Shown: positions 4,569 through 19,681 of the stretch, in pieces | How the letters are laid out: every line of letters begins with the position of its first letter | Position numbering within the stretch: position 1 is the first letter of the stretch | Assembly (NCBI GenBank): GCA_031431875.1 | Contig: JANPEF010000018.1 | Location: 1-19,681, forward strand | DNA from: Candidatus Eiseniibacteriota bacterium | GTDB lineage: Bacteria; Eisenbacteria; RBG-16-71-46; DASYSL01 | DNA: 19,681 nucleotides | Reading direction: 5' to 3' | The notes under the pieces: model-generated | What the model was told of the DNA's origin: nothing | Database searches by the model: none | The model's input: the letters and a program-made list of their open reading frames with translations, nothing else | Translations under genes and position numbers: made by a program

Positions 4569-5371
4569 GAGCGACCCCCGGCGGGCGGCTTGCGCTGCTT
4601 CTTCTTGACCGAGATGCCGATGCCCTTCTCGGCGCCCCGCACCTGCCCGACCTCGGCGTGGAGCGTCACCCACAGCTTCCCGCCCGCCGCGAGAACCCGT
4701 TCCACCGACAGCTCGAGCGGCACGACGAGCGAGTCGAGCGCGACCGAGCCCTCCTGGATCGCGGGCACGCGGATGTTCTGCGCCAGCGCCACGGGGATCT
4801 GGAGTGTGGGCAGCGCGTCCTGCAGCAGGTCGCGCCCCTTGTCCGCGATGAAGTTCTTCCCGCCCGCGCCGAGCACCCTGTCGAACATGCCCGCGCTGCG
4901 GACCTCGATGCGATCGACGGCGATCGTCACGCTGAGGCGATGCGTCGTGGAGTCGACCGCGATCGCGCCGAGGCCGCCGTGGATTCGCAACGTTGTCTTC
5001 CGCTCGGGCGTCTGCGGCCGGTGGATCTCGCCGTCGAGCGTGATGTAGCCGAACTTGTCGCGCAGCAGCACCGTCGCGCTATCGAGGTGCACGACGAACT
5101 TCTTCCCCAGCGGGCGCTCCAGCGGGAGCTGGAAACGCAGGGCGTCGCCGATGACCTTCTCGTCGATGCCGACGAGGAAGCGCTCGCGGGGGATCAGCGT
5201 GCCCTGCTCGGCCTCGACGATCAGCTCGCGCAGGCCCTGGTTCTGCCGCTCGAGGACCGCTTTCCTGATCAGGTACTCGGTCTCCTCGTTGGAGGCGGAG
5301 CAACCGCCGAGCAGGATCGTCCCCACGAGGAGAAGGGCCATGGCTGCCCGGAGGCGCGAAGACGGATTCAT
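4565..5371 (-). CDS. Uncharacterised lipoprotein with N-terminal coiled coil, 268 aa
   Basis: [24 protein letters not shown] (lipobox LGGC), then [22 protein letters not shown]. Basic C-terminus. Coupled to the next gene by a 4-bp overlap. Confidence 0.82.
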
Positions 5372-5454: not shown

Positions 5455-5832
5455 ATGAGCATGGAACTCGGTGCGTTTTCGATCAGCCTCACCGTCAAGG
5501 ACCTCGCGGCATCCCGGGCGTTCTACGAGAAGTTCGACTTCAAGAGCTTCGCTGGGAACGCCGCACAGAACTGGCTGATCCTCAAGAACGGCGACCACAT
5601 CATCGGCCTGTTCCAGGGCATGTTCGAGAAGAACATGCTCACCTTCAATCCCGGCTGGGACCAGGACGCGCAGAAGCTCGCCTCGTTCACCGACGTCCGC
5701 GAGCTGCAGCGCACGCTCAAGGCCCAGGGGATCACGTTCACGAGCGAGGCCGACGAAACGACCACCGGGCCCGCGAGTTTCGTCGTGGTCGATCCCGACG
5801 GGAACCCCGTCCTCGTGGACCAGCACGTCTGA
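5455..5832 (+). CDS. VOC/glyoxalase family protein, 125 aa
   Basis: GAGGAG RBS. Has [19 protein letters not shown] at the N-terminus and [20 protein letters not shown] at the C-terminus, the standard VOC motifs. Confidence 0.92.
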
Positions 5833-5990: not shown

Positions 5991-6788
5991 GTGCGCAATC
6001 TGCTACTCGCTATCGTGTTTACCGCCGTCGCCGTCGCCCCGGTTCGGGCCGACGAGATCTTCGGCGGCGATCTTCAGGTCGTCGAGGAGTTCGCGATCGG
6101 CACGCCCGGGACGATGGAGCCCGCGGTGCTGGTCTCGGACTACTCGAACGTGAGCAACTTCCTCGGCCAGGGCTTCATCAACGGCGGGTCCGCGCTGCAG
6201 GGCACCAACACCATCACCCGCCTCGTTGCCGATGACCTGACGCCCACCGGCGTCCATGCTGGATTGTCGATCACGCAGTTCAAGTTCAGCATGGCCAACT
6301 TCAACCAGACGACCGTGAGCACTCGTCCGCGCGTCCGCTTCTGGTTCGCCGACGGCGCCGCCGGTGCTCCGGGCACGTACTACAACCTGCCCGCCGCAGT
6401 CGGCTTCTCGTTCAACCCGATCGCCATCGGACCCGGCGTGACGGTCGTCACCGCCACCCTCGCTCCCGGCCAGTTCTTCATGCCGGGTGTGCCATTCTGG
6501 GCCGGCATCACGTTCGACAACAACAACGGGGCCACGGGCGCCACGGCGGCGCAGCTCGACCTGATCGGCCAGGGCATCTTCGACCCGGCGGATATCGGCA
6601 GCAGCGGCGACCAGTTCTGGGTCTCGACAGGTGCTGGCAGCCTCTTCAACCTGGCCAACCCGGCGGGTTCCCTGGGCAACCTGGGCGGCGCCCCGCCGGC
6701 CAGCTTCGGCTGGGAGTTCACCGTCGATGCGCCGGTCCCGGTCAATCAGACGAGCTGGGGCCGCGTGAAGTCGCAGTACAAGAACTAG
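5991..6788 (+). CDS. Secreted protein of unknown function with C-terminal SWGxVK tail, 265 aa
   Basis: Strong GGAGGAGG RBS before the GTG start. Signal peptide MRNLLLAIVFTAVAVAPVRA. G/T/N/F-rich mature domain ending VPVNQTSWGRVKSQYKN. Confidence 0.88.
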   Translation: MRNLLLAIVFTAVAVAPVRADEIFGGDLQVVEEFAIGTPGTMEPAVLVSDYSNVSNFLGQGFINGGSALQGTNTITRLVADDLTPTGVHAGLSITQFKFSMANFNQTTVSTRPRVRFWFADGAAGAPGTYYNLPAAVGFSFNPIAIGPGVTVVTATLAPGQFFMPGVPFWAGITFDNNNGATGATAAQLDLIGQGIFDPADIGSSGDQFWVSTGAGSLFNLANPAGSLGNLGGAPPASFGWEFTVDAPVPVNQTSWGRVKSQYKN

Positions 6789-6819
6789 TCGATCGCATTG
6801 TCGCAGGCGTCTCAACAAC

Positions 6820-6852
6820 GGGCCGCTTCCCCTCGGGGAGGCGGCCCTTGAT
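6820..6852 (+). terminator. Intrinsic terminator-like hairpin
   Basis: GGGCCGCTTCCC-CTCG-GGGAGGCGGCCC (12 bp with one G-U) followed by TTGAT, about 30 nt after stop 6788. Confidence 0.65.
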
Positions 6853-6917
6853 GTCGGAGTCGCAGGAGGACTCGACGCCTCCATGCAGTGATCCGCCGGA
6901 TAGGCTAGATTCCCCGC

Positions 6918-9614
6918 ATGCCGCTCTCCGCCGGAACCCGTGTCGGCCCGTACGAGATCGTCGCCCCGCTCGGCGCTGGCGGAATGGGCGAGGTGTACCG
7001 CGCCCGCGATCCGCGCCTGGGGCGCGACGTGGCGATCAAGGCGTTGCCCGCCGAGTTCTCGCGCGACCCCGAGCGTCTTGCCCGCTTCGAGCGCGAGGCA
7101 CGGCTGCTGGCCTCGCTCTCACACCCCAACATCGCCGGGATTCACGGCCTCGAGGAGGTCGACGGCGCGCGCTACCTCGTGCTCGAACTCGTCGAGGGCG
7201 AGACGCTGGCCGACCGACTGGTCCGCGGGCCGTTGCCCGTCGACGAGGCGATCGACATCGCGCGGCAGATCGCGACGGGCGTGGAGGCGGCGCACGAGAA
7301 CGGGGTCGTCCACCGGGACCTCAAGCCTGCGAACGTGATGCTCACGCCGGTGGGCGCGGTCAAGGTGCTCGACTTCGGTCTCGCCAAGTCCGGAGCGAGC
7401 GAGCCCGCCGCCGTCGATCCGGGGGCGTCGGCCTCGCCCACGATGACCTACAACCCGACGCAGGCAGGCATCGTCCTGGGCACCGCGGCCTACATGAGCC
7501 CGGAGCAGGCGCGCGGTCGGCCGGTCGACAAGCGCACGGACATCTGGTCGTTCGGCTGCGTGCTCTTCGAGTGCCTGACCGGTCGCCGAGTGTTCGCGGG
7601 CGAGACGTCGTCGGACCTGGTCGCGCACATCCTCAAGACCGAGCCCGACTGGAGCCGCCTGCCGGCCGCGACGCCCGCGCGCGTGCGCGCGCTGCTCGAG
7701 CGCTGCCTGCGCAAGGACGCGCGCGAGCGCCTGCGCGACATCGGCGAGGCGCGCATCCTGCTGGCCGCGCCGTCGCAACCCGAGGACTCGGCGGCCCCGC
7801 CGCGCACCCGCAGCGGCGGCGTGCCGTGGTGGTTTGCGGCGGCGGCCGTCCTGGCCGTGGCCGCGCTCGCGGTCTTCGCTACGATGCGCCTGGGCCCCGG
7901 CACGCGGTCTGGCCTGGTGCGCAAGTTCGACCTGCTGGCGAAGGACCTGGTGTTCGACTGGCCGGTGACGCCGCGCCTGTCGCCAGACGGCTCGCGCTTT
8001 GCCTACGCATCCGCGAACCAGCTCTGGGTGCGCGACCTCGACCAGCTCGCGCCGCGTGCGGTGGCCGACCTCCAGGAGCCGATGGCGTTCGCGTGGTCGC
8101 CCGACTCGCAGGAGCTCGTGTATGGCGACCGCAAGCAACTGTGGCGGGTCGGCCTGGCCGGCGGGGCGCCGAGCGCGGTGTGCGAAGTGCCGGCCACGGG
8201 GAAGCTGATCGGCGTGACGTGGAGCGCCCGGGGAGTAATCGCGTTCTCGGTCTGGCGGGATCGCATGTACCAGGTTCCGGCGCTGGGCGGCAATCCGAGC
8301 GTGCTGATCGAGATCGACCCTGACACGCAGATCGACTTTCACTGTCCGACCTGGCTCCCGAACGGGGACCTGCTCTACGTGACGCACTGGAAGAGCGAGC
8401 GCGACAGCGCCGGGACGGTGAAGCGCGCGCTCACGATCTTCGACGGAAAGCGGCAGATCGGAATTCCAGGGGAGTTCGGAAACTCGCCGGACGACATGCC
8501 GACCCTCACCTCCAGCGGGCGCCTGCTGTTCCTGCGCGTCGGGGCGACGCCCGGAGCCTGGTCGGCGCCGTTCGACCTGGCGCACCATCGCGCCACCGGT
8601 CCGCCGATCCTCGTGGCGGCGGGGGCCGTCACGATCAGCGCCGCCGACGATGGTTCCCTGCTCTACGTCGAAGGGTCCGGGAACAGCGTCACGCGGGAAC
8701 TGGTCTGGGTGGATCGCGCGGGGAAGGACATTGCGGCGCTGGGCAAGCCGCACCGCGGACTCGGTCGCGCCCGGCTTTCGCCCGACGGCCGGCGCATCGC
8801 GTTCACGGCCAGCCATGGCGACAACGAAGACGTCTGGGTTCTCGACGTGGCGAGTGACACCGAGACGCGCCTCACCTTCGGCCCGCTCCGCGAAGTGTCC
8901 CCGGAGTGGATGGCGTCCTCGTCCACGCTCGCCTACATCGAGCTGGAGCCGGGCGGCATGCAGGGCCGCGTGTTGTCCATTCACGCCGACGGCTCCGGCG
9001 GCCAGCGACCGTTCGCGCCGCCGGCCTCCATCGTATCCCTCAACTGCAACGTGATGCTGGCTCCGGATGGGAGATCGGCGATCCGCATCGTCGATGAGCG
9101 CGGTCACGGGAGCTTGAAGCTGGGCCCGGTGCTCCCCGACGGTAGCCTCGGATCGCTCGGGCCGCTCCTGCCCCAGGTCCCGGCGCCCAACGTCGCCGAC
9201 GCGCGTATCTCGCCCGACGGTCGGCTGGTCGCGTACCAGACCGACAACCTGGGCCAGGTCGACGTCTTCCTGGCCCGCTTCCCCGACGGCAAGGGGCAGT
9301 GGCAGGTCGGCTCCGGAGGCGGGTTTCGGCCCCGCTGGGCGCGCGACAGCGGAGAGCTGTTCTTCCTCGCCGGCAGCGGGCCCACCAACCGCGGCATGGC
9401 CACAGCGAGGGTGGATCCCTCGCAGAATCCGCCGCTCGGAGCGATCACGCCGCTGTTCGACACCCGGGGCCGCGACCTGACCGACTTCGACGTGACCGCG
9501 GATGGCCTGCGACTCCTGTTCACGCGCCCCGTCGGCGGCGGGGATCCGTCCACGCAACACCTGGTGCTGGTCCAGAACTGGGAGCGGGAGAGTGCGGCGA
9601 AGGGTGGGCGCTGA
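6918..9614 (+). CDS. Hanks-type Ser/Thr protein kinase with a hydrophobic (putative TM) segment and TolB-like/PD40 beta-propeller repeats, 898 aa
   Basis: Kinase motifs LGAGGMGEVY, VAIK, HRDLKPAN, DFG, GTAAYMSPEQ and DIWSFG. Hydrophobic segment VPWWFAAAAVLAVAALAVFA. Repeated P-x-[LI]SPDG and WSPD motifs. Confidence 0.95.
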   Translation: MPLSAGTRVGPYEIVAPLGAGGMGEVYRARDPRLGRDVAIKALPAEFSRDPERLARFEREARLLASLSHPNIAGIHGLEEVDGARYLVLELVEGETLADRLVRGPLPVDEAIDIARQIATGVEAAHENGVVHRDLKPANVMLTPVGAVKVLDFGLAKSGASEPAAVDPGASASPTMTYNPTQAGIVLGTAAYMSPEQARGRPVDKRTDIWSFGCVLFECLTGRRVFAGETSSDLVAHILKTEPDWSRLPAATPARVRALLERCLRKDARERLRDIGEARILLAAPSQPEDSAAPPRTRSGGVPWWFAAAAVLAVAALAVFATMRLGPGTRSGLVRKFDLLAKDLVFDWPVTPRLSPDGSRFAYASANQLWVRDLDQLAPRAVADLQEPMAFAWSPDSQELVYGDRKQLWRVGLAGGAPSAVCEVPATGKLIGVTWSARGVIAFSVWRDRMYQVPALGGNPSVLIEIDPDTQIDFHCPTWLPNGDLLYVTHWKSERDSAGTVKRALTIFDGKRQIGIPGEFGNSPDDMPTLTSSGRLLFLRVGATPGAWSAPFDLAHHRATGPPILVAAGAVTISAADDGSLLYVEGSGNSVTRELVWVDRAGKDIAALGKPHRGLGRARLSPDGRRIAFTASHGDNEDVWVLDVASDTETRLTFGPLREVSPEWMASSSTLAYIELEPGGMQGRVLSIHADGSGGQRPFAPPASIVSLNCNVMLAPDGRSAIRIVDERGHGSLKLGPVLPDGSLGSLGPLLPQVPAPNVADARISPDGRLVAYQTDNLGQVDVFLARFPDGKGQWQVGSGGGFRPRWARDSGELFFLAGSGPTNRGMATARVDPSQNPPLGAITPLFDTRGRDLTDFDVTADGLRLLFTRPVGGGDPSTQHLVLVQNWERESAAKGGR

Positions 9615-9627
9615 TGCGGGAGGAACG

Positions 9628-10080
9628 ATGAGTCTGCGAAACTGGATCCTGCTCGGCGCTGTGCTCGTGGTCCCCGTCCAGGCGCAGCCGGCGCTTGCGC
9701 GCGATGAGGTCGCCGCCGTGAAGGCCACCGTGAAGGCCTACTACTCCAGCTATGCCCAGCGCGACACGCTGGCGTATCGCGCCGCGCTCACCGAGGACTA
9801 CGCGCTCCTCGAGCACGGCACCATGCTCGATGCGGCGGGGGACATCGCATTGTTGGGCCCGCCCGACTCGACCTATCGGCGCAGCGATGCCTTCGACTTT
9901 CGCAGCGTGAAGGTACAGGGCGACGTGGCCTACGCCGTCTACTTCCTCAAGTCCGAGATCAAGGACCGCGAAGGATTGCGCCAGAAGGAATGGCTCGAGA
10001 GCATGATCCTGAGGCGCACCGGGAGTGCGTGGCGCGTCGCGTTGCTGCACTCGACGCGGATCAAGCCCCCGGGCAAGTAG
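9628..10080 (+). CDS. Secreted NTF2-like (SnoaL/DUF4440-type) protein, 150 aa
   Basis: GGAGG RBS before ATG 9628. Signal peptide, then VKATVKAYYSSYAQRD...LTEDY...VKVQGDVAY...ESMILRRTGSAWRVALLHST. Confidence 0.82.
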   Translation: MSLRNWILLGAVLVVPVQAQPALARDEVAAVKATVKAYYSSYAQRDTLAYRAALTEDYALLEHGTMLDAAGDIALLGPPDSTYRRSDAFDFRSVKVQGDVAYAVYFLKSEIKDREGLRQKEWLESMILRRTGSAWRVALLHSTRIKPPGK

Positions 10081-10155
10081 GGCGCCCGGCCGACCGGCAT
10101 GCGCACTCTCCCCGGCCACGCGAATTCGGGCAGCCGCCACGGGGGAAAGCCGCGA

Positions 10156-10184
10156 TTGACCGCCCGCGGGGCCGGGCCTAGGAT
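10156..10184 (+). promoter_or_regulatory. sigma70-type promoter for 10304
   Basis: TTGACC (10156-10161), 17-nt spacer, TAGGAT (10179-10184). Confidence 0.6.
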
Positions 10185-10303
10185 CGTCGGGCGTCGGCCT
10201 TGATCCCCCCCCCGACTTTTCGACGCCCCGGCCCGAGGTTCGGCCCCTGAACTCGTCCGAACCGACCCCATCCGGCAGTCCAATTTCTGAGAGGATCCCC
10301 GAC

Positions 10304-10948
10304 ATGAAGAAGTGGCTTCTGCCCGTGGCGCTTGCCTGCGCGGCCACCTGGGCAATCGTTCCCGCCGCCCTGGCGAGCACCGACCTGTACATCTCCGAGT
10401 ACGTCGAAGGCTCGTCGAACAACAAGGCGATCGAGATCAAGAACCACACGGGCGCGGCGGTCGACCTGGCCCTGGGAGGGTACAAGCTCCAGCACTACTT
10501 CAACGGGGCCGTGACGGCCACGAACACGATCACGCTGACCGGGATCATCGCGGACAACGACGTGTTCGTCGTCGTCCACTCGTCCGCGGCCGCAGGGCTG
10601 CTCGGGCTCGGCGACCAGACCAGTGGCAGCCTCAACTTCAACGGCGACGACGCCGTCGTCCTGGTGAAGGGTGCCGGGAACACCACCGTCGATGTCTTCG
10701 GCCAGATCGGCTTCGACCCTGGAACCGAGTGGGGCGCCGGCCTGCAGAGCACCATGGACAACACGCTGCGCCGGAAGCCCGCGGTCTGCGACGGCGACAT
10801 CAACGGCTCGAACGTGTTCGATCCGACGATCGAGTGGGACGGATTCGCCACGGACACGTTCGCGGGAGTCGGTGTCCACGACGACGCCTGCGGGCCGGTG
10901 CCCGTGCTGAACAGCTCGTGGGGCTCGGTCAAGTCGCTGTACCGATAG
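10304..10948 (+). CDS. Secreted lamin-tail-domain (LTD) protein with C-terminal SWGxVK tail, 214 aa
   Basis: GAGAGGA RBS and signal peptide. [29 protein letters not shown]...[11 protein letters not shown]...VDVFG...TLRRK matches the LTD seen at the N-terminus of ExeM/NucH-type extracellular nucleases. Ends [16 protein letters not shown]. Confidence 0.9.
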
Positions 10949-10967
10949 TCGACGAATTCCGAATCGG

Positions 10968-11009
10968 CGACGACCACGTTCGCGTTGCGGGCGTGGTCGT
11001 CGTGTTCGT
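10968..11009 (+). terminator. Intrinsic terminator-like hairpin
   Basis: CGACGACCACG (10968-10978) pairs perfectly with CGTGGTCGTCG (10992-11002), followed by TGTTCGT. Confidence 0.6.
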
Positions 11010-11140
11010 GGGACCCAGCGCGTCGCGTGCAAATGATCACGACATACCACCTAAGTCCGGAAAAGACTCGCGCCTGGCGCCCCGCTCGTGTAGCTTCGTC
11101 CACCTCCCCCTGCCGGCCCCACGACCCCTCCGAGGTCGCC

Positions 11141-14100
11141 ATGAATCGTTCCACCTCGTCGATCGCACCCGGCTTCCTCTCCTTCGGCGTCGCCCTCGCC
11201 CTGGCACTGCCGGGCCTACCCGAGTCCCGGGCCGGCGAACTGGCCGACGTGTTTCCCACGCTGCCGTGGTCTCCGTCCGGCACGAGCCCCGGCCAGGGGC
11301 TCGGCTACAGCGCCGCGCCCGCCGGGGACGTCAACGGAGATGGCTACGGGGACGTCGTGGCCAGCACGGCCACCGAGGACACCGCGCAGGTTCGGGCCCT
11401 GTTGTACCTCGGCGGGCCGAACGGCCCTTCGCTCGTTCCCGCCTGGACGTTCAGCACCGGCCCCGCGGACACGCGTTTCGTCCGCCCTGCCGGGGACGTC
11501 AACGGCGACGGCTACGGCGACATCCTGTTGACCCTCCCTTACGCGACCTTCCTCAATCATCCCAGCGCCGGCCGCGTCGCGATCTTCCACGGCGGACCCG
11601 CGGGACTCCCGGCGGCGCCGAACTACGAGCTCCTCCCGCCGTCGCCGGCGGACGCACAATTCTTCGGCAACTCTGCGGACTTCGCCGGGGACGTCAACGG
11701 CGACGGCTTCTCCGACGTCGTCGTGTCGACCTCGCTCTACGTGGAGGGCGGCATTCAGCGGCGCGGTGCGGCGTACATCTATCACGGCGGTTCGGCGGGC
11801 CTGGCGGCCGCGCCTGCGCGAACGCTCATCGGCCCGGCGGCCTCGACCCGGTTCGGCGAGAAGGCTGCCACGGCGGGCGACGTGAATGGCGATGGCTTCG
11901 ACGACGTCATCATCAGCGCCCCCGAGGCGGACTCACCGTTTCCCCGCGGCGGGATCGTGCGGATCTTCCATGGCTCGGCGACGGGGATCGAGGCGGTCCA
12001 GAACGTGGAGTTCCCGGGGCTGAGCATCGATGCGCTCTGCGGCGTTTCCGTGTCGACGGCCGGCGACGTGAACGGGGACGGCTACGCCGATGTCCTGTTC
12101 GGCTCGCCCGGCAACGGTGTGGCGGTCGGTCGCGCCGACATCGCCTTCGGGGGCCCGGACGGAGCCGGCTCGCGCACGCAACTGAACAACCCGAACCCCG
12201 TGGCGCTGGAACGCTACGGGCTCGTTGTCGCCACGCTCGGCGACACCGACGGCGACGGCTACTCCGAGTTCGCGGTCAGCGGCCGGAACCCCCCGACGAA
12301 CAACGGGCACGCCATCGTGTTCGGCGGCGGCCCCGCGTTCGTCCAGCTGGGGGAGCTCATCTCGCCACCGGGCGGAGACCAATTCGCCGGGTCGATCGGC
12401 CCATCCGGCGACGTCGACGGGGACGGGTTGAGCGAGATCCTCGTCTCCGATTTCGGTGCCGCCCCCAACTCCGCGGGTCGGATCTACCTGCGCGATCGGC
12501 AACGGAGGATCCTCGGCACCGCGACGGGCTGGCCGCTGATCGGACCGCAGCTCGGGACGCGCTTCGGCAACTCGCTGGCGATCGTCCAGATCCGCAGCAT
12601 TCTCGCGTTGCCGCGGCTCGTGATCGGCGACCCGCAGTTCGACGGCTTCGGACGCGTCACCGAGTACGAGGGCGGTGGCGTGGCCGGCCTCTCGACCACG
12701 ATCCGCCACGCGGTGACGAGCAACATCAACGCGCAGGCCCTGGGAACACGCGTCGCCGACGCCGGCGACTTCGACGGCGACGGTTTCGGCGACTACGTCG
12801 TGTCGTCGCCGGGGATCAATGGGGGAACGTTCCAGAACCCGATCTCCCAGGTCGGTCGCGTCGACCTCGTGCGCGGCACGGAGACGGCGCCGGCGGCGCC
12901 GGTCCCGCTGCTGGCGGGCACGCGCGACTTCGACCGCGTGGGCAGTGCCCTGGCCGGCCGCGGCGACGTCAACGGAGACGGCTACCACGACGTGCTGATC
13001 GGCGCGCGCGAGGCGGACACGGCGACGCTGTCGAACGCCGGCAAGGCATGGGTCGTCTTCGGCGGCCCCACACCGCCGGCCCCGTGGACGATCGAGGGCA
13101 GCCAGGCGGGCCAGGGTCTGGGCGCCGGCGTCGCGTTGCTCGACTTCGACGGCGACGGCTGGACCGACGTGGCGATCGGCTCGACATCGCCGTTCGGCGG
13201 ACCGCAGCTCGGCGGGAAGGTGCAGGTCCACTACGGCAGCCCGAGTGGTCCCGCAATCGCTCCCGGATTCGTCCTCACCTCGACGGGCGTCACGTTCGGG
13301 TCGGCCGTGGCCGCACTCGGCGACGTCAATGGCGACGGCGTGTCCGATCTCGGCGTCGGCGCACCGCTCGAGGACAACAAGGGTGTCGCGCGCGTCTACG
13401 CAGGCTCGCGCGGCCGCTCGCAATCGCGCGCGACGATCAAGACCTACGCCGGCACGCAGGATGGCGGGCGCATGGGCGAGACGATGGCGGGCGGCGGCGA
13501 CATCGACGGCGACGGCTTCGGCGAGTTCGCGATCGGCCAGCCGGGATTCGACGGCGGGCAGACCGACGAGGGCCGCGCCTTCCTGTATTTCGGCGCGCTC
13601 CTCCTGCCCGAGGCGCAGCCCACCGTCACGCTCGAGCCGAACCTGTTCGGCGCCGAGATGGGAGGGAGCCTCGCGCCGCTGGCCGACGTCAATGCCGACG
13701 GATTCGCCGACTGGATCGTCGGCGCGCCCGGCGCGGGTCGCGTCTTCGTCGGGCTCGGCGGCGGGGGGCGCGGCCGTCGGCACCAGCTCCTGTTGCTCGA
13801 TCCGCTCGCCGGTCGCCTGCTCCACTCGCCGACGCAGAGCTCGAGCGATCACGCCGTGATGGCCGCGCTCTTCCCGCACGCCCCGATGGGTCGCACGAAG
13901 ATGGGCCTGCAGTTCGAGGTGCGCACCCAGAACGAGGTCTTCACCGGCGTGCCGACGAACACGACTCCGGTCGAGTACGTGGCCGGCAATCCGGAGGACG
14001 GCGGGACCGTGAGCGAGGAACTCGACATCCCGCAGGCGGCGACCGCGTTCCACGTGCGAGTGCGCCAGTACACGCGCTCGCCCTACTTCCAGCGCTCGCC

Positions 14101-14485
14101 GTGGGTGGCCGTCGACGCGCGCTCGATGGGCGAGCACGACTTCCGCTTCGCCGGCGCCGCGGTGTCGGTGGAACCATTCGAGCCCGCGCGGGTGGACCGG
14201 CCGAGTCTGCGTGCCGTGGCGCCGAGCCCGGCCGGCGGAACGACCGCGTCGCGCATCGCGTTCTCGCTGCCGCACGCGGCGCGCGCGCGACTCGACATCC
14301 ACGACGTGCGCGGCGCACGGGTACGCCGGCTCTTCGATGGCGACGCGACGGCGGGCACGACGACGCTCGCCTGGGACGGTCGCGACAACTCCGGGCGCAC
14401 AGCGCCCGCAGGGATCTACTTCGTGCGCTTCGCCGCCGAGGGTGAGCAAGAGACTGCGCGCTTCGTGCGGCTCGGGGGGTGGTGA
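11141..14485 (+). CDS. Secreted FG-GAP (integrin-alpha-like) repeat protein with C-terminal FlgD-Ig/T9SS-CTD-like domain, 1114 aa
   Basis: GAGGT RBS before ATG 11141 and a signal peptide. Thirteen GD[VFIT][ND]GDGxx[DE]-type Ca-binding loops plus one degenerate blade. C-terminus ...IAFSLP..ARARLDIHDVRGARVRRL...LAWDGRDNSGRTAPAGIYFVRF. Confidence 0.92.
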   Translation: MNRSTSSIAPGFLSFGVALALALPGLPESRAGELADVFPTLPWSPSGTSPGQGLGYSAAPAGDVNGDGYGDVVASTATEDTAQVRALLYLGGPNGPSLVPAWTFSTGPADTRFVRPAGDVNGDGYGDILLTLPYATFLNHPSAGRVAIFHGGPAGLPAAPNYELLPPSPADAQFFGNSADFAGDVNGDGFSDVVVSTSLYVEGGIQRRGAAYIYHGGSAGLAAAPARTLIGPAASTRFGEKAATAGDVNGDGFDDVIISAPEADSPFPRGGIVRIFHGSATGIEAVQNVEFPGLSIDALCGVSVSTAGDVNGDGYADVLFGSPGNGVAVGRADIAFGGPDGAGSRTQLNNPNPVALERYGLVVATLGDTDGDGYSEFAVSGRNPPTNNGHAIVFGGGPAFVQLGELISPPGGDQFAGSIGPSGDVDGDGLSEILVSDFGAAPNSAGRIYLRDRQRRILGTATGWPLIGPQLGTRFGNSLAIVQIRSILALPRLVIGDPQFDGFGRVTEYEGGGVAGLSTTIRHAVTSNINAQALGTRVADAGDFDGDGFGDYVVSSPGINGGTFQNPISQVGRVDLVRGTETAPAAPVPLLAGTRDFDRVGSALAGRGDVNGDGYHDVLIGAREADTATLSNAGKAWVVFGGPTPPAPWTIEGSQAGQGLGAGVALLDFDGDGWTDVAIGSTSPFGGPQLGGKVQVHYGSPSGPAIAPGFVLTSTGVTFGSAVAALGDVNGDGVSDLGVGAPLEDNKGVARVYAGSRGRSQSRATIKTYAGTQDGGRMGETMAGGGDIDGDGFGEFAIGQPGFDGGQTDEGRAFLYFGALLLPEAQPTVTLEPNLFGAEMGGSLAPLADVNADGFADWIVGAPGAGRVFVGLGGGGRGRRHQLLLLDPLAGRLLHSPTQSSSDHAVMAALFPHAPMGRTKMGLQFEVRTQNEVFTGVPTNTTPVEYVAGNPEDGGTVSEELDIPQAATAFHVRVRQYTRSPYFQRSPWVAVDARSMGEHDFRFAGAAVSVEPFEPARVDRPSLRAVAPSPAGGTTASRIAFSLPHAARARLDIHDVRGARVRRLFDGDATAGTTTLAWDGRDNSGRTAPAGIYFVRFAAEGEQETARFVRLGGW

Positions 14486-14493
14486 GTCGTGAC

Positions 14494-15129
14494 CTATCGG
14501 TAGAGATCCTTCAGGCCACCCCATGTCGTCGGCTGCGCTGGCGTCGCAACGCCATCGAGGGTCGCCATCACGTATCCGGACCGGATCTGCGTGAAGTCGA
14601 AGAACAGGATCGTGAAGGTCTTGCCCTCGAACACGCTCAGCTCCGGGAACTCCCGCGGGATCGCCTGCGACCCGAACACCGTCCCCTGCACGTCGTCGAG
14701 CGTGTACGTCAGCGACTGCATCATGGTGTTGCCGAGGGGCGGGGTCGTGATGCCACCCTGCACCTGCGCCGAGTACTGATCGTACGGCGCGTTGTTGGTC
14801 ACCGTGGTGAGCGAGAACGTCGGCACGCCGACACCCGCCCAGGTGTCGATGGAGAATGCGAACTCCGTGAGCGCGTCCTGGTAGCCGGTGACGTACGCGT
14901 CCTGCGGCACTCCTGTCGCATTGCGCTCGATCGTGTACTGAAAGGTCACCGCCTGGCCCAGCGAAAACAGGCCGGTGAGATCGGCCGTATTGCCCGAGCC
15001 ATTGGTGACCGTCGTGAGCACACCGGTGAACTGGTGCGTGACCTCCTCGGCCTGTACACGCGGAGCAACGAGCAGGAGCGATACGAGAATGAGCGCACTG
15101 CGAGAACGGATCTTCGTAACCAGGTCCAT
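14494..15129 (-). CDS. Secreted protein of unknown function with C-terminal TWGxLK tail, 211 aa
   Basis: GGAGGA RBS before ATG 15129. Signal peptide MDLVTKIRSRSALILVSLLLVAPRVQA. T/F-rich beta domain ending TPAQPTTWGGLKDLYR. Confidence 0.87.
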   Translation of the reverse strand: MDLVTKIRSRSALILVSLLLVAPRVQAEEVTHQFTGVLTTVTNGSGNTADLTGLFSLGQAVTFQYTIERNATGVPQDAYVTGYQDALTEFAFSIDTWAGVGVPTFSLTTVTNNAPYDQYSAQVQGGITTPPLGNTMMQSLTYTLDDVQGTVFGSQAIPREFPELSVFEGKTFTILFFDFTQIRSGYVMATLDGVATPAQPTTWGGLKDLYR

Positions 15130-15360
15130 GGAATCCTCCGGGAGCGGGCGGGGCTGTAACGCGTGCCCAACGGGGGGGGCACCTACGGTACACCCGTGAG
15201 ACGACGCAGGAAACCCCACATCAGCAAACGCCGCTGCACTCGGACCGAACGCCCACTAAATTGTTGTCCCACAAGGATGGCGCGAATCCCGTGAGGCCGG
15301 GTCGGAAGGATGGGAGACGCGGCCAGCGCCATCCAAATCAACGCTTGCGGGCCAGAACCC

Positions 15361-15389
15361 TTGCAACGGCCATCGCCAAGGCGTATTGT
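15361..15389 (+). promoter_or_regulatory. sigma70-type promoter for the 15476-18267 operon
   Basis: TTGCAA (15361-15366), 17-nt spacer, TATTGT (15384-15389). Confidence 0.55.
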
Positions 15390-15475
15390 CCCTGCGCCTT
15401 CTCTCCCCTCCACACACCATGCCTGCTCCTGGGCTGCGCTGAGCTGTGCCCCACGGTTGTCATTCGGAGGTTTCC

Positions 15476-15901
15476 ATGCGTTCCGCCGCACCCCTGCTGC
15501 TCGCCATCATAATTGTGGTCAGCCTCTCCACTCGCGTCGGCGCCGCACCGCCCGCCACATCTCCCTCCGCAAAGGCGCCCGAGATCGTGACGGTCGGCAG
15601 CGCACCGTACGTGCTCACGGCCGCCCATCGCGCCAAGCTGGCCGAGAGCCTCCGCCAGTACGAACTCCGGCGGTCCATTGCGGCGACGCGGGCCACCATT
15701 CCTGCAGACGGCCTCCGGGTCCCCGCGGCGATGATCCCGCCCAAGTCCGCGTTCCTCGAGACCCGCGAGGCGGCAGGCGTGTCGCGGAATCGTTTCAAGG
15801 TCGGCCAGCCATCCGCCGCCGGCGCACCTGTCCTCCCGGCCCCGACCTATGGTCCGGCCACCATCAAGGCAATGAGCAGCGAGAAGGCAGGCCAGCCATG
15901 A
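15476..15901 (+). CDS. Small Ala/Pro-rich secreted hypothetical protein, 141 aa
   Basis: GGAGGT RBS at 15466-15471. Signal-like MRSAAPLLLAIIIVVSLSTRVGA. Stop overlaps the next start (ATGA 15898-15901). Confidence 0.68.
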   Translation: MRSAAPLLLAIIIVVSLSTRVGAAPPATSPSAKAPEIVTVGSAPYVLTAAHRAKLAESLRQYELRRSIAATRATIPADGLRVPAAMIPPKSAFLETREAAGVSRNRFKVGQPSAAGAPVLPAPTYGPATIKAMSSEKAGQP

Positions 15902-18267
15902 GCCGCCCGATCCGATCCCTGCGCGGAGCGGCGCCGACGTTCGCCATCGCCGTCACGATGCTCTTCGCGTCGGCGCTCGCGCCGGAGCAAGCCCTGGCCC
16001 AGTGCACCTATCCTGTGCTCACCAGTGGAACGGTCGTCTCGCTCGGCAGCGGGGCGACGCCGCAGTTCAGCATGGGCGCCGACGCTTGGTGCGCGGTCGG
16101 CGTTCGTGGCCCGGTCGGCGACGATTGGGACCTGACCGTGAACTCAGCGACTGGAGCCTTCCCCGGATGCGTCGCGGGAGGCCTCTCGTCCTCGACCTAT
16201 GGAGCCGGCACTGTCGACTTCGTGATCGGCGACTTCAACTCCGGTGCGAATCCCCTCGGCACCTACTACGCGCAGTCCTACCGCTTCTCCGGCGTGGGAG
16301 CGGCGGCCGATGTCGAGTGGGACGACGACAACGACTATCTCCTGCCCAACGTCTACCCGACCGTGCGCTCGACCGGACCGGGCGACGTCCTCGAGTGCTG
16401 GGACACGTATCTCGCTGCCGGATATACGTACACGCTGAGCCATGTCTCGTTCGGATCGGCGACGACGCGCGCCTTCCTGTTCCGCAATCCCGCCGCCGGC
16501 GCCTACTGGGTCGGGCGGTCGAGCCGCGTGATGGAGATCGGGATGAACACCACGGGGGCATACACGGCGCCCACGTCGGGCTGGTACGGGGTGGTCGTCA
16601 CCAACGAGAACGGTGGCTCCAGCAACTACTCGATCGGCATTGCCACCTGTCTGCCGCCGGAGCCGCTCGCCAGCGCGTCGCCCTCAATCGTTATCGGGCC
16701 GAACAGCTGGACATACTTCGACCAGAGCAACAACTACTACACCGCGGTCGCGGTGCGGTCGAACGACCCGTCCCAGGACTGGGACCTTGGCGTCTTCGGG
16801 GCGGTGTCCGGCAGCCCGCACCCGTACTGCTTCGGAAACGGCCTGGCCTCGTCCGCCTATGGCAGCGGCAAGGCCGACGTGATCATCGGCGACTTCAACG
16901 GCGGGGCCAATTTCGCGGGGCGGTATTACGCTCATGCGCTCGCCTACGGGGGCTCGACATCCCCCGCCCGCGTGGAGTGGGACGACGGCGTCGAGCAGCT
17001 CGCCATCGACCAGCCATCCATCGTGCGCACGACCGGCGCGAACGACATCATCGAGTGCTGGGATGTCTTCCTGACGGCTGGCCAGTGGTACACGTTCGAC
17101 TTCGCGGCTGAGGGCGCGGACCTCAAGTACATGGTCGTGCGGAATCCGGGCAGCACATTCTGGGTCAACCGCAGCTCTCCAGACGTCGCCGAGTTCAACG
17201 CCAGCGAGCAGTATCTCGCCCAGACCAGCGACTGGTACGCCGTGGTCGTCGTGAACGACAACGGCGCCGAGGGCAGTTATCGCCTCGGCATCTCGACCTG
17301 CCCGCAGGAGGCGTACCCGCTGCCCGCGAACTTCACCGTCTACAGCCAGTACGACTGGAAGTACGCCTCACAGGCCGATCCCGATTCCGCCCGCTGGATG
17401 GCGTTTGCCACGCGCTCGCGCAACCCGGCCCAGGACTGGGACGTGACGATGTTCAGCGACTTCACCGGCGGCACGGGCGCAACGGGATGCGCCACTGGCA
17501 CCCTGGCCTCATCGGCGTACGGCTCGGGCTGGGCGGACTATGTCGTAGGGTACCGGCGCTACAACCCGCCCAGCTTCGTCTTCGGCTTCCCGTTCGCGTT
17601 CGGCTCGACCACCTCCGACGGCCTCCTGATGTGGGACGAGGCCGACCCTCTCACGGTGGACGCGCCGACGACGAACGGCAGCATCGTGCCGGAGGACATC
17701 GTCGAGGTGTACGACGTGGAGCTCAAGGCCGGCTGGGAGTACGAGGTCCAGTTCACTCCGGTCGGCGCAGTCAATCTGCACTTCTCGGTGTTCGGGAACC
17801 CGGCCGGGGCGACCTACTGGAGCGGCCGCGGGGGTGCGATGCTCGCGGAGGCGAACACCACGACGAGCTTCATCGCACCGTTCGCCGGACGGTACGCGAT
17901 CGTGGTGGCGAGCGAGTCGGAAGCGACGGGCACCTACGGATTGCGCGTCGCCCGCGGTCTCGTCGCCGTCGGCGATCCGCCGGTCGGGCGGACCCGACTC
18001 GTCGGGCTCTCCCCGAACCCGGCGCGCGGGGCGACCCGAATCACCTACGAGCTCGCGTCGCCGGGCGCAGCCTCGTTTGCGGTATTCGATCTCGCCGGGC
18101 GGCGGGTGGCGACCCTGACCGCGCCATCGGGCTCGGCAGGAGCGTCCAGCGTCGTATGGAGCGGTCGCGACGAGGACGGACGCGCGGTCGCGACGGGCGT
18201 CTACTTCGTGAGCATGCTGCACGAGGGTCGGGCGGTGGGCGAGTCGAGACTGGTCCTCCTGCGCTGA
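15898..18267 (+). CDS. Secreted protein with three ~215-aa tandem repeats (PPC-like beta-sandwich pairs) and FlgD-Ig/T9SS-CTD-like C-terminus, 789 aa
   Basis: Signal peptide ending ALA-Q. Repeats start at Cys codons 16003, 16648 and 17299 and share DWD[LV], L[AS]SSxYG, WD[DE], L-x-AG-x-x-Y, NP and Y[AG][VI]VV. C-terminus SPNPARGATRITYEL...VFDLAGRRVATL...WSGRDEDGRAVATGVYFV. Confidence 0.9.
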   Translation: MSRPIRSLRGAAPTFAIAVTMLFASALAPEQALAQCTYPVLTSGTVVSLGSGATPQFSMGADAWCAVGVRGPVGDDWDLTVNSATGAFPGCVAGGLSSSTYGAGTVDFVIGDFNSGANPLGTYYAQSYRFSGVGAAADVEWDDDNDYLLPNVYPTVRSTGPGDVLECWDTYLAAGYTYTLSHVSFGSATTRAFLFRNPAAGAYWVGRSSRVMEIGMNTTGAYTAPTSGWYGVVVTNENGGSSNYSIGIATCLPPEPLASASPSIVIGPNSWTYFDQSNNYYTAVAVRSNDPSQDWDLGVFGAVSGSPHPYCFGNGLASSAYGSGKADVIIGDFNGGANFAGRYYAHALAYGGSTSPARVEWDDGVEQLAIDQPSIVRTTGANDIIECWDVFLTAGQWYTFDFAAEGADLKYMVVRNPGSTFWVNRSSPDVAEFNASEQYLAQTSDWYAVVVVNDNGAEGSYRLGISTCPQEAYPLPANFTVYSQYDWKYASQADPDSARWMAFATRSRNPAQDWDVTMFSDFTGGTGATGCATGTLASSAYGSGWADYVVGYRRYNPPSFVFGFPFAFGSTTSDGLLMWDEADPLTVDAPTTNGSIVPEDIVEVYDVELKAGWEYEVQFTPVGAVNLHFSVFGNPAGATYWSGRGGAMLAEANTTTSFIAPFAGRYAIVVASESEATGTYGLRVARGLVAVGDPPVGRTRLVGLSPNPARGATRITYELASPGAASFAVFDLAGRRVATLTAPSGSAGASSVVWSGRDEDGRAVATGVYFVSMLHEGRAVGESRLVLLR

Positions 18268-18288
18268 TCTGAATCGACTCGAGTCAGG

Positions 18289-18324
18289 GCGGCCGTCCGC
18301 GCGTGGCGCGGGCGGCCGCTTCGT
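18289..18324 (+). terminator. Intrinsic terminator-like hairpin
   Basis: GCGGCCGTCCGCGC-GTG-GCGCGGGCGGCCGC (14 bp with one G-U) followed by TTCGT, about 20 nt after stop 18267. Confidence 0.55.
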
Positions 18325-18538
18325 CGCGATGCGCCCGGAGGTGACGATCGCGACTGCGCGCCGTTGCCAGCCCTGATCCCCCGACCGACCCGGCGTATCC
18401 TGAACGACCCGTCGCTCAATCCGAGTTCCTCGAGCTCTCGAACCCGAGCAAATTTGCAGCCAGGTCCGGCAGCAGCGTCGGTCGCCGACGCCACCGGACT
18501 CCGCCCCATTCTCCGCTAAGCTGTTGGCCTGCAAGGAC

Positions 18539-18582
18539 GAAGGGGTGGCCGAGCGGTCGAGGGCGGCGCTCTTGAAGGACCG
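18539..18582 (+). pseudogene. Degenerate 5' half of tRNA-Ser(TGA)
   Basis: GAAGGGG-TG-GCCGAGCGGTCGAGGGC-G-GCGCT-CTTGAAG-GACCG contains the acceptor 5' strand, T8, a serine-type D arm and anticodon TGA at 18573-18575. The anticodon stem is disrupted, and no variable arm or GTTCRA T-arm follows. Confidence 0.6.
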
Positions 18583-18673
18583 ACACCCCTCCTGCGCGCC
18601 ATGGGCAAACTGGGTGCTCGCAGTGCGCGGCTCGTGTTTGGTGGCGACTTGCGGGTGAGGGCCGATCCTTTAC

Positions 18674-18702
18674 TTTGTTCGGGTACCGAACAATGTTACC
18701 GT
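18674..18702 (+). promoter_or_regulatory. Palindromic operator-like site overlapping a putative promoter
   Basis: TTGTTCGG-GTA-CCGAACAA (18675-18693) is a perfect 8-bp inverted repeat, immediately followed by TG-T-TACCGT (extended -10-like). Confidence 0.5.
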
Positions 18703-18926
18703 GGCCGCGCAGTCGATGAAGGGGCCCCTTGGGCCCCATGAACCGTGGCCACGAGGACGAGTGGCCCGGTTGCCCCAGCTTCTCCGCCATCGCGAGACAT
18801 TCCCGTTGCCGGGCTCTGCCACCGTTGTTTCCCGGGTTGCGGGTGTCTTCTCACGAGTCCGGTTCCGACACGCGGAACGATTTCAGGAAGCGGAGAAGGA
18901 CCATCCGTAGGAAGGTCGTGAGTGAT

Positions 18927-19547
18927 ATGAGCGTCTTGATCAAGATCTTCGCGAGTTCGTTCTGCATGCTGGCGCTGACGTTGACCGCGGGCCAAGCCTC
19001 CGCGGCGAATCTTCTCAGCAACCCCGGTTTCGAGACCGGGTCCCTGGCTCCCTGGGCGGGTGTCGGCGGCCTCGCCGCGAATGCCACGATCACTGTCCTG
19101 TCTCCGGACAACGGTCCATCGGCGCCCGGGACCTTTCACGCGTTCCTCGACAACCGTGCGGAGGCCAACGGGCTGACCATGGCGCAGACGACCGCGCTCG
19201 GCACCGCGGTTCCGGGAAGGGTCTACTACTCGTTTGATCTGAAGCTCGGCACGGCGGCCAATGGCGGTGTGTTCTTCGTGGAGATCTTCGCTCAGAACGC
19301 GGGCGGTGCCGTCATCGGCAATGCAGGACTGCTGGGGAATTTCGCCCCGGCCAACTGGACCACCTACAGCGGCTCGTTCATCGCTCCGGCGGGCACGGAC
19401 CACCTGACGATCCAGTTCGAGGCGCCGACGGGAGCCGTGACCGGGAGCGTGTCCTCCATGAAGGTCGACAACGTGGATCTCCACCAGGACGTGGTGGTGC
19501 CCGCGGAAGGCGCCTCCTGGGGCCGCGTGAAGGGTCTGTACCGCTGA
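18927..19547 (+). CDS. Secreted CBM4/9-like (galactose-binding-like jelly-roll) protein with C-terminal SWGxVK tail, 206 aa
   Basis: Signal peptide ending ASA, then ANLLSNPGFETGSLAPW...YYSFDLK...WTTYSGSFIAPAGT...MKVDNVDL. Ends VPAEGASWGRVKGLYR. Alternative start GTG 18918. Confidence 0.87.
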   Translation: MSVLIKIFASSFCMLALTLTAGQASAANLLSNPGFETGSLAPWAGVGGLAANATITVLSPDNGPSAPGTFHAFLDNRAEANGLTMAQTTALGTAVPGRVYYSFDLKLGTAANGGVFFVEIFAQNAGGAVIGNAGLLGNFAPANWTTYSGSFIAPAGTDHLTIQFEAPTGAVTGSVSSMKVDNVDLHQDVVVPAEGASWGRVKGLYR

Positions 19548-19580
19548 TATGGCATGACCTCTTGTCAAGCTGGTCCACAC

Positions 19581-19614
19581 GCGACCACCGCTCCGGCGGT
19601 GGTCGCTGTGTTTT
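19581..19614 (+). terminator. Intrinsic terminator
   Basis: GCGACCACCGC-TCCG-GCGGTGGTCGC (perfect 11 bp) followed by TGTGTTTT. Confidence 0.75.
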
Positions 19615-19681
19615 GGGGAGATGAGCTTCTGGAAGGACGGACGCGGAAGTCGCCGACGGCGTGTCACTCTGATATCCGCGG

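Follow-up and report, generated by a model that had tools for sequence, protein, structure and literature searches.

Many bacteria rely on C-terminal sorting signals to determine which of their exported proteins are kept on the cell, and each known class of them has led to a new enzyme family: the sortases, the exosortases, the rhombosortases and the T9SS (type IX secretion system) sortase. The closest described modules, those of PEP-CTERM/exosortase, LPXTG/sortase, GlyGly-CTERM/rhombosortase, IPTL-CTERM and MYXO-CTERM, are short, portable and strictly C-terminal, and are found on unrelated signal-peptide proteins of one proteome. Here we describe a tail with these same properties, of about 17 residues and without a membrane helix, that ends four proteins encoded in a 19,681-nucleotide stretch of DNA from a Candidatus Eiseniibacteriota bacterium (the window, meaning the whole stretch analysed: C18:1-19681, contig JANPEF010000018.1). 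The genome has 3.75 Mb and 70% G+C, is 98.45% complete and is spread over 166 contigs. We propose that the tail is probably a portable C-terminal localisation tag for Sec-exported proteins. Two other kinds of signal serve for comparison. Known T9SS signals, according to PMC12618676, are folded seven-strand beta-sandwiches of about 70-100 residues, with PorV or PorP/SprF shuttles as their readers. The Lpp box, known from Braun lipoprotein, is a short C-terminal element of 6 residues without a membrane helix that is enough to link a periplasmic reporter to peptidoglycan, and Coxiella LimB is linked via an internal lysine (both from PMC12274547).

The four open reading frames (ORFs) with the tail lie at 5991-6788 (+), 10304-10948 (+), 14494-15129/15219 (-) and 18927-19547 (+), and each has a Shine-Dalgarno-like sequence or a plausible start. 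A preliminary description of this DNA had placed the tails at these positions, with P(-6), W, G, K and Y invariant and the spacing fixed, and re-reading the sequence gave the same picture for the four window tails. It had also reported signal peptides on all four proteins and unrelated mature domains behind them; we saw a canonical N-terminal signal peptide, judged by eye, on each protein, and BLAST left the four as four singleton clusters. In protein 1 (5991..6788, +; 265 aa), the signal peptide is followed by a passenger that AlphaFold2 models as a beta-sandwich, and the tail lies at 6735-6785 (VPVNQTSWGRVKSQYKN). Its passenger is related to choice-of-anchor/PEP-CTERM passengers, with no Pfam hit and no NCBIfam hit at E<=1, and a Foldseek comparison of the model with the PDB gave nothing at E<=0.001 and weak jelly-roll/CBM-like rows only. 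Protein 2 (10304..10948, +; 214 aa) has a lamin-tail domain (LTD; Pfam E 6.7e-16) between the signal peptide and the tail at 10898-10945, and the only NCBIfam match was to the N-terminal part of the ExeM exonuclease model. In protein 3 (14494..15129, -; 211 aa from the ATG at 15129, frame open to 15219), the signal peptide is followed by a passenger of no assigned family, without a hit in either Pfam or NCBIfam, and by the tail at 14497-14544 (TPAQPTTWGGLKDLYR). Protein 4 (18927..19547, +; 206 aa from the ATG at 18927, frame open from 18729) carries the tail at 19497-19544 (VPAEGASWGRVKGLYR) after its signal peptide and a CBM_4_9-like passenger, for which the Pfam match was weak (E 1.3e-4) and below the cut-off.

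Across six frames of the whole genome, the strict motif WGx[VLIMA]KxxY matched 63 times. Sixty-one of these matches lie 1-2 residues before a stop codon and one lies 5 before, so that 62 of 63 are within 5 residues of a stop, while the reversed motif gave 0 matches in the same genome-wide search. These counts show a genuine motif that is confined to the C-terminus and far exceeds chance. With a broader core, [ST]W[GS]x[IVLM]Kxx[YFLW], there were 64 terminal matches and 1 non-terminal match, against 1 match for its reversed form. C-terminal position had been set as a check in the preliminary description, and the six-frame scan answers it: the motif is not internal. The sole non-terminal strict match (contig C7, plus strand, frame 2, near residue 10370; GRSWGRVKAVYRQASPG) starts 9 residues beyond a stop codon and continues for another 11, and is likely a decayed tail gene or remnant.

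Aligned on the tryptophan (position 0), the 62 tails give the consensus (C)..[PS][TV]-P-A-x-P-[AST]-[ST]-W-G-x-[VIL]-K-x-x-Y-R-(R/N/Q/K/H)-end. All 62 tails have W, G, K and Y as well as S or T at -1, and the residue at +4 is K in 62/62, never R. Genome-wide, R at +8 is found in 56/62, P at -6 in only 48/62 and A at -5 in 45/62. Between 0 and 5 residues follow the motif, and the last residue of the tail is R in 36/62 and K in about 2/62. Information content is high at positions 0, 1, 3, 4, 7 and 8 and low at 2, 5 and 6, and the conservation moment peaks at 100 degrees, with a value of 1.23 versus 0.15 at 180 degrees. This periodicity supports a helical reading of the tail, as one conserved face of a predicted alpha-helix with a Ser/Thr N-cap and a proline-rich spacer before it. 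A beta-strand, our first reading from the apparent alternation of residues, was discarded since the periodicity is of 100 degrees and not of 180. We ran AlphaFold2 on protein 1 with a 79-row alignment and obtained a confident beta-sandwich for residues 21-247 (pLDDT above 94; block means 93-99), with a helix drawn at 255-263 that has low pLDDT (about 57-61) and is not packed against the passenger. Judging from this model, the tail would behave as an exposed peptide that folds on binding. The amphipathic helix proposed in the preliminary description is thus supported by the 100-degree moment, and the low-confidence AlphaFold2 helix agrees with it.

The tag is present on about 60 proteins, some 2% of the genes of the genome, and most of the 62 carriers have 160-340 residues, the longest having 492. 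A strict signal-peptide heuristic was positive for 50/62 tail ORFs versus 186/600 random ORFs, in line with the co-occurrence with signal peptides that had been proposed as a check; the heuristic is crude because start codons were chosen for the best signal peptide, and a laxer version discriminates poorly (56/62 vs 188/400). The 57 passengers of at least 100 residues fell into 44 BLAST clusters at E<=1e-3, so the tail is not confined to a few recent paralogues. Pfam recognised CHRD (2), NHL propellers (2), DUF4394, DUF7450, LTD (2), CBM-like domains (3), PD40 and beta-helices (2) among the passengers and had no match for most of them. As far as their sequences tell, the passengers are binding-type modules, with no obvious enzymes. 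Regarding the tail itself, neither Pfam nor NCBIfam gave a match over it in the four window proteins, and 30 of the 62 tails, searched as 28-residue peptides against NCBIfam (release 20), had no match at E<=10. This agrees with the earlier observation that the tail, which has no membrane helix or basic cluster and is far shorter than a T9SS signal, fits none of the sorting systems LPXTG, PEP-CTERM, GlyGly-CTERM and T9SS. In the available excerpts of the literature on Eisenbacteria or Krumholzibacteria in connection with sorting signals, T9SS or choice-of-anchor proteins, we found no description of the tail.

Earlier signals of this kind came to be recognised because a short module takes the place of known anchors, at one junction and on the same passengers. 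A search of 1.84 billion cluster representatives gave 511 relatives of protein 1 of the window at E<=0.001. Among the best 150 of these 511, the tail ends 10 proteins, a PEP-CTERM-like end (by regular expression) was found in 79, and 61 end otherwise. The tail and PEP-CTERM begin at the same junction, directly after ..ANFGWEF... We scanned 142 of the 150 with NCBIfam, leaving out eight that are longer than 900 residues, and C-terminal PEP-CTERM-type models matched 58 of them (a manual count of the table), the T9SS type A model (TIGR04183) 14, IPTL-CTERM 1 and a GC-type dockerin 1; one relative exceeded the cut-off of NF041539 choice_anch_R (31.4 vs 30). The ten tail-bearing relatives gave no C-terminal NCBIfam hit. 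Within this family, the large C-terminal domain (CTD) of T9SS cargo is found on long multi-domain forms and the tail on short ones. One passenger domain therefore carries differing C-terminal anchors across lineages, as in choice-of-anchor proteins. Homologues of the DUF4394 passenger tell a similar story: the tail directly follows the end of the domain in 21/120 among the matches listed, and two-domain forms, including all those with Bacteroidota names, end flush at the same point. In the genome of the window, exosortase (PF09721) gave 0 matches, with the control matched in Methanocaldococcus, and a six-frame search found only 2 PEP-CTERM-like ends, both doubtful. Exosortase being absent and PEP-CTERM ends all but absent, their place is taken in this lineage by the tail. 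Such signal swapping, read from sequence comparisons, is the strongest of the new evidence and strongly suggests a sorting or anchoring function for the tail. It also bears out the idea that a C-terminal module on diverse exported passengers resembles the sorting systems, as relatives bear PEP-CTERM or T9SS domains in the very position of the tail.

We then counted the strict DNA pattern WGx[VIL..]KxxYR-stop in other genomes. It was present in 41/41 genomes of the same order, in 187/201 sampled genomes of the phylum of the window (Eisenbacteria by record labels) and in 54/61 genomes of a second phylum, reached by way of a metagenome-assembled genome (MAG) labelled Krumholzibacteriia, with 0-39 strict matches per genome; the reversed control pattern gave 0-1 across samples. 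The counts include one unpublished genome, on which none of the claims rests. One family of small genomes was low, with the strict pattern in 30/41. A scan of the whole collection with a longer pattern returned at least 121 loci, and nearly all among the matches listed are labelled Candidatus Eisenbacteria. Three MAGs labelled Verrucomicrobiia, Limnocylindria and Fibrobacteraceae have 23-31 strict tails each; the first of them falls in the phylum of the window and the last in the second phylum. Tails of the second phylum have acidic residues before the helix (EExSWGAIKSMYR) and a variable last residue. Genomes with zero strict matches carry dialects, as seen in a search with a hidden Markov model in which 20 places were read: ..TWGRIKSQFQP, ..TTWSGIKAQYR, ..SSWGAIKALY and ..TTWGKIKDIYRNR, among which W-S replaces W-G, F or L replaces Y and 0-4 residues trail the motif, with W and K kept. 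The tag is near-universal in at least two uncultured phyla. Two IMG/VR contigs, classed as viral, also contain the long pattern, in signal-peptide proteins ending in ..STWGRVKGVYR (minus strand) and ..TTWGSIKAFYR; these contigs may be prophages or misclassified.

Compared with the described systems, the tail resembles PEP-CTERM in two further respects, since it is found at the same junction on homologous passengers of choice-of-anchor type and opens with a small proline-containing motif, [TV]PA, comparable to VPEP. Unlike the tripartite sorting domains, it has no hydrophobic membrane helix and no basic cluster after it, given that only 0-5 residues follow the motif. Membrane-embedded transpeptidases of that kind could not hold it as they hold their own substrates. 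TIGR02595 and related models gave no hit on the 30 of 62 tails at E<=10. With the T9SS CTD (TIGR04183/PF18962, here in its PF13860 form; type B), the tail has in common that it is a C-terminal signal on Sec-exported proteins of the same genomes, and the two are mutually exclusive. It differs from it in being about 17 residues long, predicted helical and flexible, and without a hit to any CTD model: TIGR04183, PF18962 and PF13860 matched neither the four window proteins nor the 30 tail peptides. The Lpp box, present in Braun lipoprotein and in Dickeya OutB, is according to PMC12274547 likewise a very short C-terminal tag, at work on proteins exposed to the periplasm, free of a membrane helix and portable to a reporter, with a lysine-based chemistry and basic and aromatic residues near the end. 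In the tail, by contrast, the invariant lysine is internal, 4-9 residues from an end that is usually Arg, and six positions are strongly conserved; thus the C-terminal lysine of the Lpp box is missing, and the presence of YkuD in the genome is a weak point of agreement. The beta-signal of outer-membrane proteins, a strand read by BAM, also is a conserved motif at the extreme C-terminus with an aromatic residue near the end. The barrels of this genome, however, end in ..x-F with an alternating pattern (PorV ..SLGARF, SprA ..GSVRF), while the tail ends in Y-R(-x), has helical conservation and sits on soluble passengers, and so does not belong with them.

On this basis, we consider that the localisation tag would be made of a proline-rich spacer, [PS][TV]PAxP, and a Ser/Thr-capped amphipathic helix of about 9 residues, whose conserved face is formed by W0, G1, [VIL]3, K4, Y7 and R8 and which ends 0-5 residues before the C-terminus. 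The passenger would be exported and folded, and the exposed helix would then be bound by a conserved envelope receptor. This binding would set the final place of the protein, by retention on, or passage to, the outer membrane or the cell surface, and the tail would take in this lineage the role that PEP-CTERM, T9SS CTDs and other anchors have on the same passenger families. The data show the anatomy of the tail, its strictly C-terminal place, its modularity, the export-type nature of its carriers, the swapping of signals and the spread over taxa; that a protein reads the tail, where the carriers go and whether or not the tail is cleaved are inferred.

The machinery of the T9SS is encoded in the genome: PorU scored 553.3 bits (cut-off 420), SprA 440.7 bits (cut-off 200) and PorV_fam 201.9 bits (cut-off 90), and the PorV gene adjoins PorU. 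The presence of SprA, PorV and PorU does not imply that this machinery reads the tail. There are about 9-12 paralogues of the PorV family, and 148 proteins (median 738 residues) end in a FlgD_ig-type CTD, none of them with the tail. These observations would fit a genome that uses one or the other of two C-terminal signals, the bulky CTD for large proteins and the short tail for small proteins. A CTD gene is adjacent to 15/62 tail genes versus 6.1 in shuffles, a moderate enrichment, and 4/2000 shuffles reached 15. Tail genes also lie beside each other, in 7 adjacent pairs versus 1.27 expected in shuffles. CTD genes were found in 14/20 loci from genomes with few strict tails, PorU was matched in 24/24 genomes tested (20 of them over the cut-off), and both PorU and a PorU-like paralogue are also present in genomes with zero strict matches. 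The T9SS is equally present where strict tails are rare, so that its presence neither predicts nor requires many tails. Our best guess, if on balance a doubtful one, is that the reader is a T9SS-associated component, e.g. a paralogue of the PorV-family outer-membrane shuttles, which here we only infer.

Several results weigh against the proposed localisation tag with a dedicated receptor. No adjacent CTD gene was found for 47/62 tail genes, on which count we also rejected the idea that the carriers piggy-back on a neighbouring CTD protein, and T9SS and CTD cargo are also present in genomes in which the strict tail is rare. A 17-residue tag is without precedent among the T9SS signals dealt with in PMC12618676. 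The signal-peptide figures are rough. The neighbours that recur around the 43 tail genes called by the gene caller, around all 62 and in the 20 loci of low-count genomes are genes for CTD cargo and Ser/Thr kinases only, with no enzyme or barrel, and the search for the reader by gene neighbourhood thus gave no candidate, either in the genome or in the 20 loci. Neither phylum offered a clean tail-less genome: the genomes with zero strict matches, considered as controls for a presence/absence search for the reader, were rejected because of their dialects, and such profiling is not possible within either phylum. Complex prediction for the periplasmic part of the kinase, PorV and the 40-residue tail, each with an alignment, gave a score of 0.00 twice, in runs without controls, and speaks neither for nor against binding.

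One alternative is that the amphipathic helix needs no reader at all and is held as an in-plane anchor in the interface of a membrane leaflet or on lipopolysaccharide, as are the C-terminal amphipathic anchors of some penicillin-binding proteins and the membrane-targeting sequence of MinD. The shortness of the tail, its constant place at the extreme C-terminus and its helical periodicity, with W, V/I/L and Y on one side and K and R alongside, would be expected of such an anchor, as would the lack of a dedicated gene beside the tail genes. A lipid interface, however, would not distinguish K from R at +4, nor account for G at +1 and S/T at -1 in 62/62 tails, and three hydrophobic side chains only are at its disposal. 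The acidic residues before the helix in the second phylum go against charge attraction to anionic lipids, and a sequence so well conserved on unrelated passengers in two phyla looks as if it were recognised by a protein. We consequently hold an anchor of this kind to be distinctly unlikely.

A second alternative, and to our mind a quite improbable one, is a covalent tether: an L,D-transpeptidase would join the invariant lysine to a peptidoglycan stem peptide, as a variant of the Lpp box, and the carriers would be periplasmic and wall-bound. The lysine is never arginine, dialects included, which would suit a covalent mechanism, and most tails end in Tyr-Arg where E. coli Lpp ends in Arg-Lys. 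The Lpp box and LimB stand as precedents (PMC12274547). Five YkuD genes exceed the cut-off in the genome, and one of them (C17:28963-29322) is the divergent neighbour of a tail gene (C17:27734-28453), which may be chance; by a rough estimate, one such adjacency among 5 genes is close to chance (20%). YkuD is widespread, with matches in 7/14 control genomes, and therefore its presence says little. Moreover, the Lpp box, according to the same source, needs a C-terminal lysine, whereas only about 2/62 tails end in K, and tolerates many substitutions, whereas the tail is strongly conserved. The passengers, too, bear surface-directed signals elsewhere.

Ser/Thr kinases were the other class of recurring neighbours, and the carriers could in principle be signalling adaptors, in which the variable domain would bind a ligand and the constant tail would dock on the periplasmic part of membrane kinases. 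At a distance of up to 4 genes from tail genes, kinase genes were counted 14 times versus 5.9 expected (hypergeometric p 0.0013, uncorrected). They are immediately beside five tail genes, including gene 1 of the window, and are present in 6/20 loci of low-count genomes, and many passengers are binding-type modules. Yet the enrichment is modest and genes for secreted proteins cluster in islands anyway. The PD40 propeller is present in only 2/14 of the nearby kinases versus 12/47 genome-wide, so their periplasmic parts are heterogeneous whereas the tail is constant; on the same count, the PD40 ectodomain was rejected as the specific receptor. The swap with surface anchors would be left unexplained as well, and we give this alternative very little credence. 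Finally, a role in processing or turnover, with a periplasmic protease recognising the tail as a degron or removable pro-piece and not for localisation, is very improbable: the modelled tail is indeed an exposed, flexible C-terminal peptide and the conserved stretch of small residues and proline before it could be a cleavage site, but PDZ-type recognition uses an extended strand and a free carboxylate, at odds with the 0-5 residues between motif and end and with the helical periodicity, and a degron on about 60 unrelated, stable-looking domains that is swapped for anchors in relatives is hard to rationalise.

Returning to the localisation tag, it is in no domain library that we searched, and its shortness and polarity would suit none of the readers known so far. 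We would tentatively suggest that it could be the first short C-terminal sorting signal of diderms without a membrane helix: a capped amphipathic helix of 9 residues, carried by dozens to more than 100 proteins per genome in several uncultured phyla, and read by a new kind of soluble or outer-membrane receptor and not by an intramembrane sortase-like enzyme. Such a receptor might be a specialised shuttle of the PorV family, by which small folded proteins would cross the type IX translocon or pass alongside it, or else an enzyme that attaches them covalently via the invariant lysine. With a model of the tag, thousands of 'hypothetical' proteins could at once be better annotated; it would also delimit which proteins of these soil and sediment phyla are secreted or at the surface, and give a handle for finding a new sorting or anchoring machine. 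Once the reader is known, the 17 residues could also serve as a display or localisation tool.

Several loci related to the T9SS deserve description. The PorU-PorV operon lies in contig C58 (12740-28042). Further along, it encodes an inactive M6-like metalloprotease that is T9SS-dependent, two paralogues (302-331 aa) whose ..F ends are barrel-like and whose DUF5683 match is weak, and a protein of 1480 aa with a faint SprA-like stretch, all of them linked to the T9SS. PorV paralogues are found at C145:18503-25581, C106:63120-69739, C147:21449-27425 and other places, most of them immediately preceded by a large CTD protein and a barrel protein of 943 aa whose end is TonB-receptor-like. By analogy, this layout, which resembles that of polysaccharide-utilisation loci, suggests cargo-specific shuttles. 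A second PorU-like C25 peptidase of 1483 aa, with its own FlgD_ig CTD, is encoded at C23:8017-12468; it is below the cut-offs of the PorU and 'PorU2' models, and similar paralogues are present in most genomes tested. In a genome with few tails, two genes ending in ..RSWSELKSLYR and ..RDWGQVKSLYR (6910-10434) directly follow a TolQ/ExbB-like and ExbD-like pair and precede two CTD proteins.

Regarding the other genes of the window, two CTD proteins flank tail genes. One (10985..14485, +; likely start 11141) has FG-GAP repeats (Pfam 3.4e-63) and a C-terminal FlgD_ig/T9SS type A-like domain (FlgD_ig 1.5e-11), and the other (15310..18267, +; likely start 15898) is a secreted protein ending in a FlgD_ig/Por_Secre_tail domain (TIGR04183 25.0 bits, cut-off 23; FlgD_ig 1.3e-9). 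The gene 130 bp downstream of tail gene 1 (6918..9614, +; Pfam, NCBIfam) encodes a Ser/Thr kinase that has a membrane helix and, in the periplasm, a PD40/TolB-like propeller. The window also has the 3' end of an amidohydrolase gene (1-246), followed by a gene for a formylglycine-generating-enzyme-like protein (57-1391; FGE-sulfatase, E 2.4e-77), and further two adjacent lipoprotein-like genes (3597-5371, -), a gene of the glyoxalase fold (5455-5832) and one for a secreted DUF4440/SnoaL-like protein (9628-10080). No known sorting enzyme is among the window genes, as the preliminary description had said in noting that no sorting machine is encoded there.

The window closes, directly after the TGA of tail gene 4, with the left end of an IS110-family element (19548..19681, +), which is no part of the tag. 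The element is about 1.57 kb long, encodes a transposase of 394 aa (PF01548 and PF02371) and has the ends TATGGCATGACC.../...GGTCATGCCATAGGGTCTAG. At all four of its left junctions (19548-19681 in the window, C60:22209-22339, C59:8595-8725 and C61:48799-~50364) it lies exactly after TA(C/T)CGCTGA, the Tyr-Arg-stop of a tail-type gene, and three copies break contigs. Its target site appears to be the 3' end of tail genes, which is conserved. Among the 26 genomes searched, its left end was found in the genome of the window only (0/25 relatives, apart from a 29-nt piece in one). A fifth tail gene, at C67:35010-35837 (-), ends in ..ATYR-TGA. The same 11 nt, TATGGCATGAC, come next, after which the sequence differs and has a hairpin of its own; the site may be a target that is empty or otherwise occupied, or may hold a related element.

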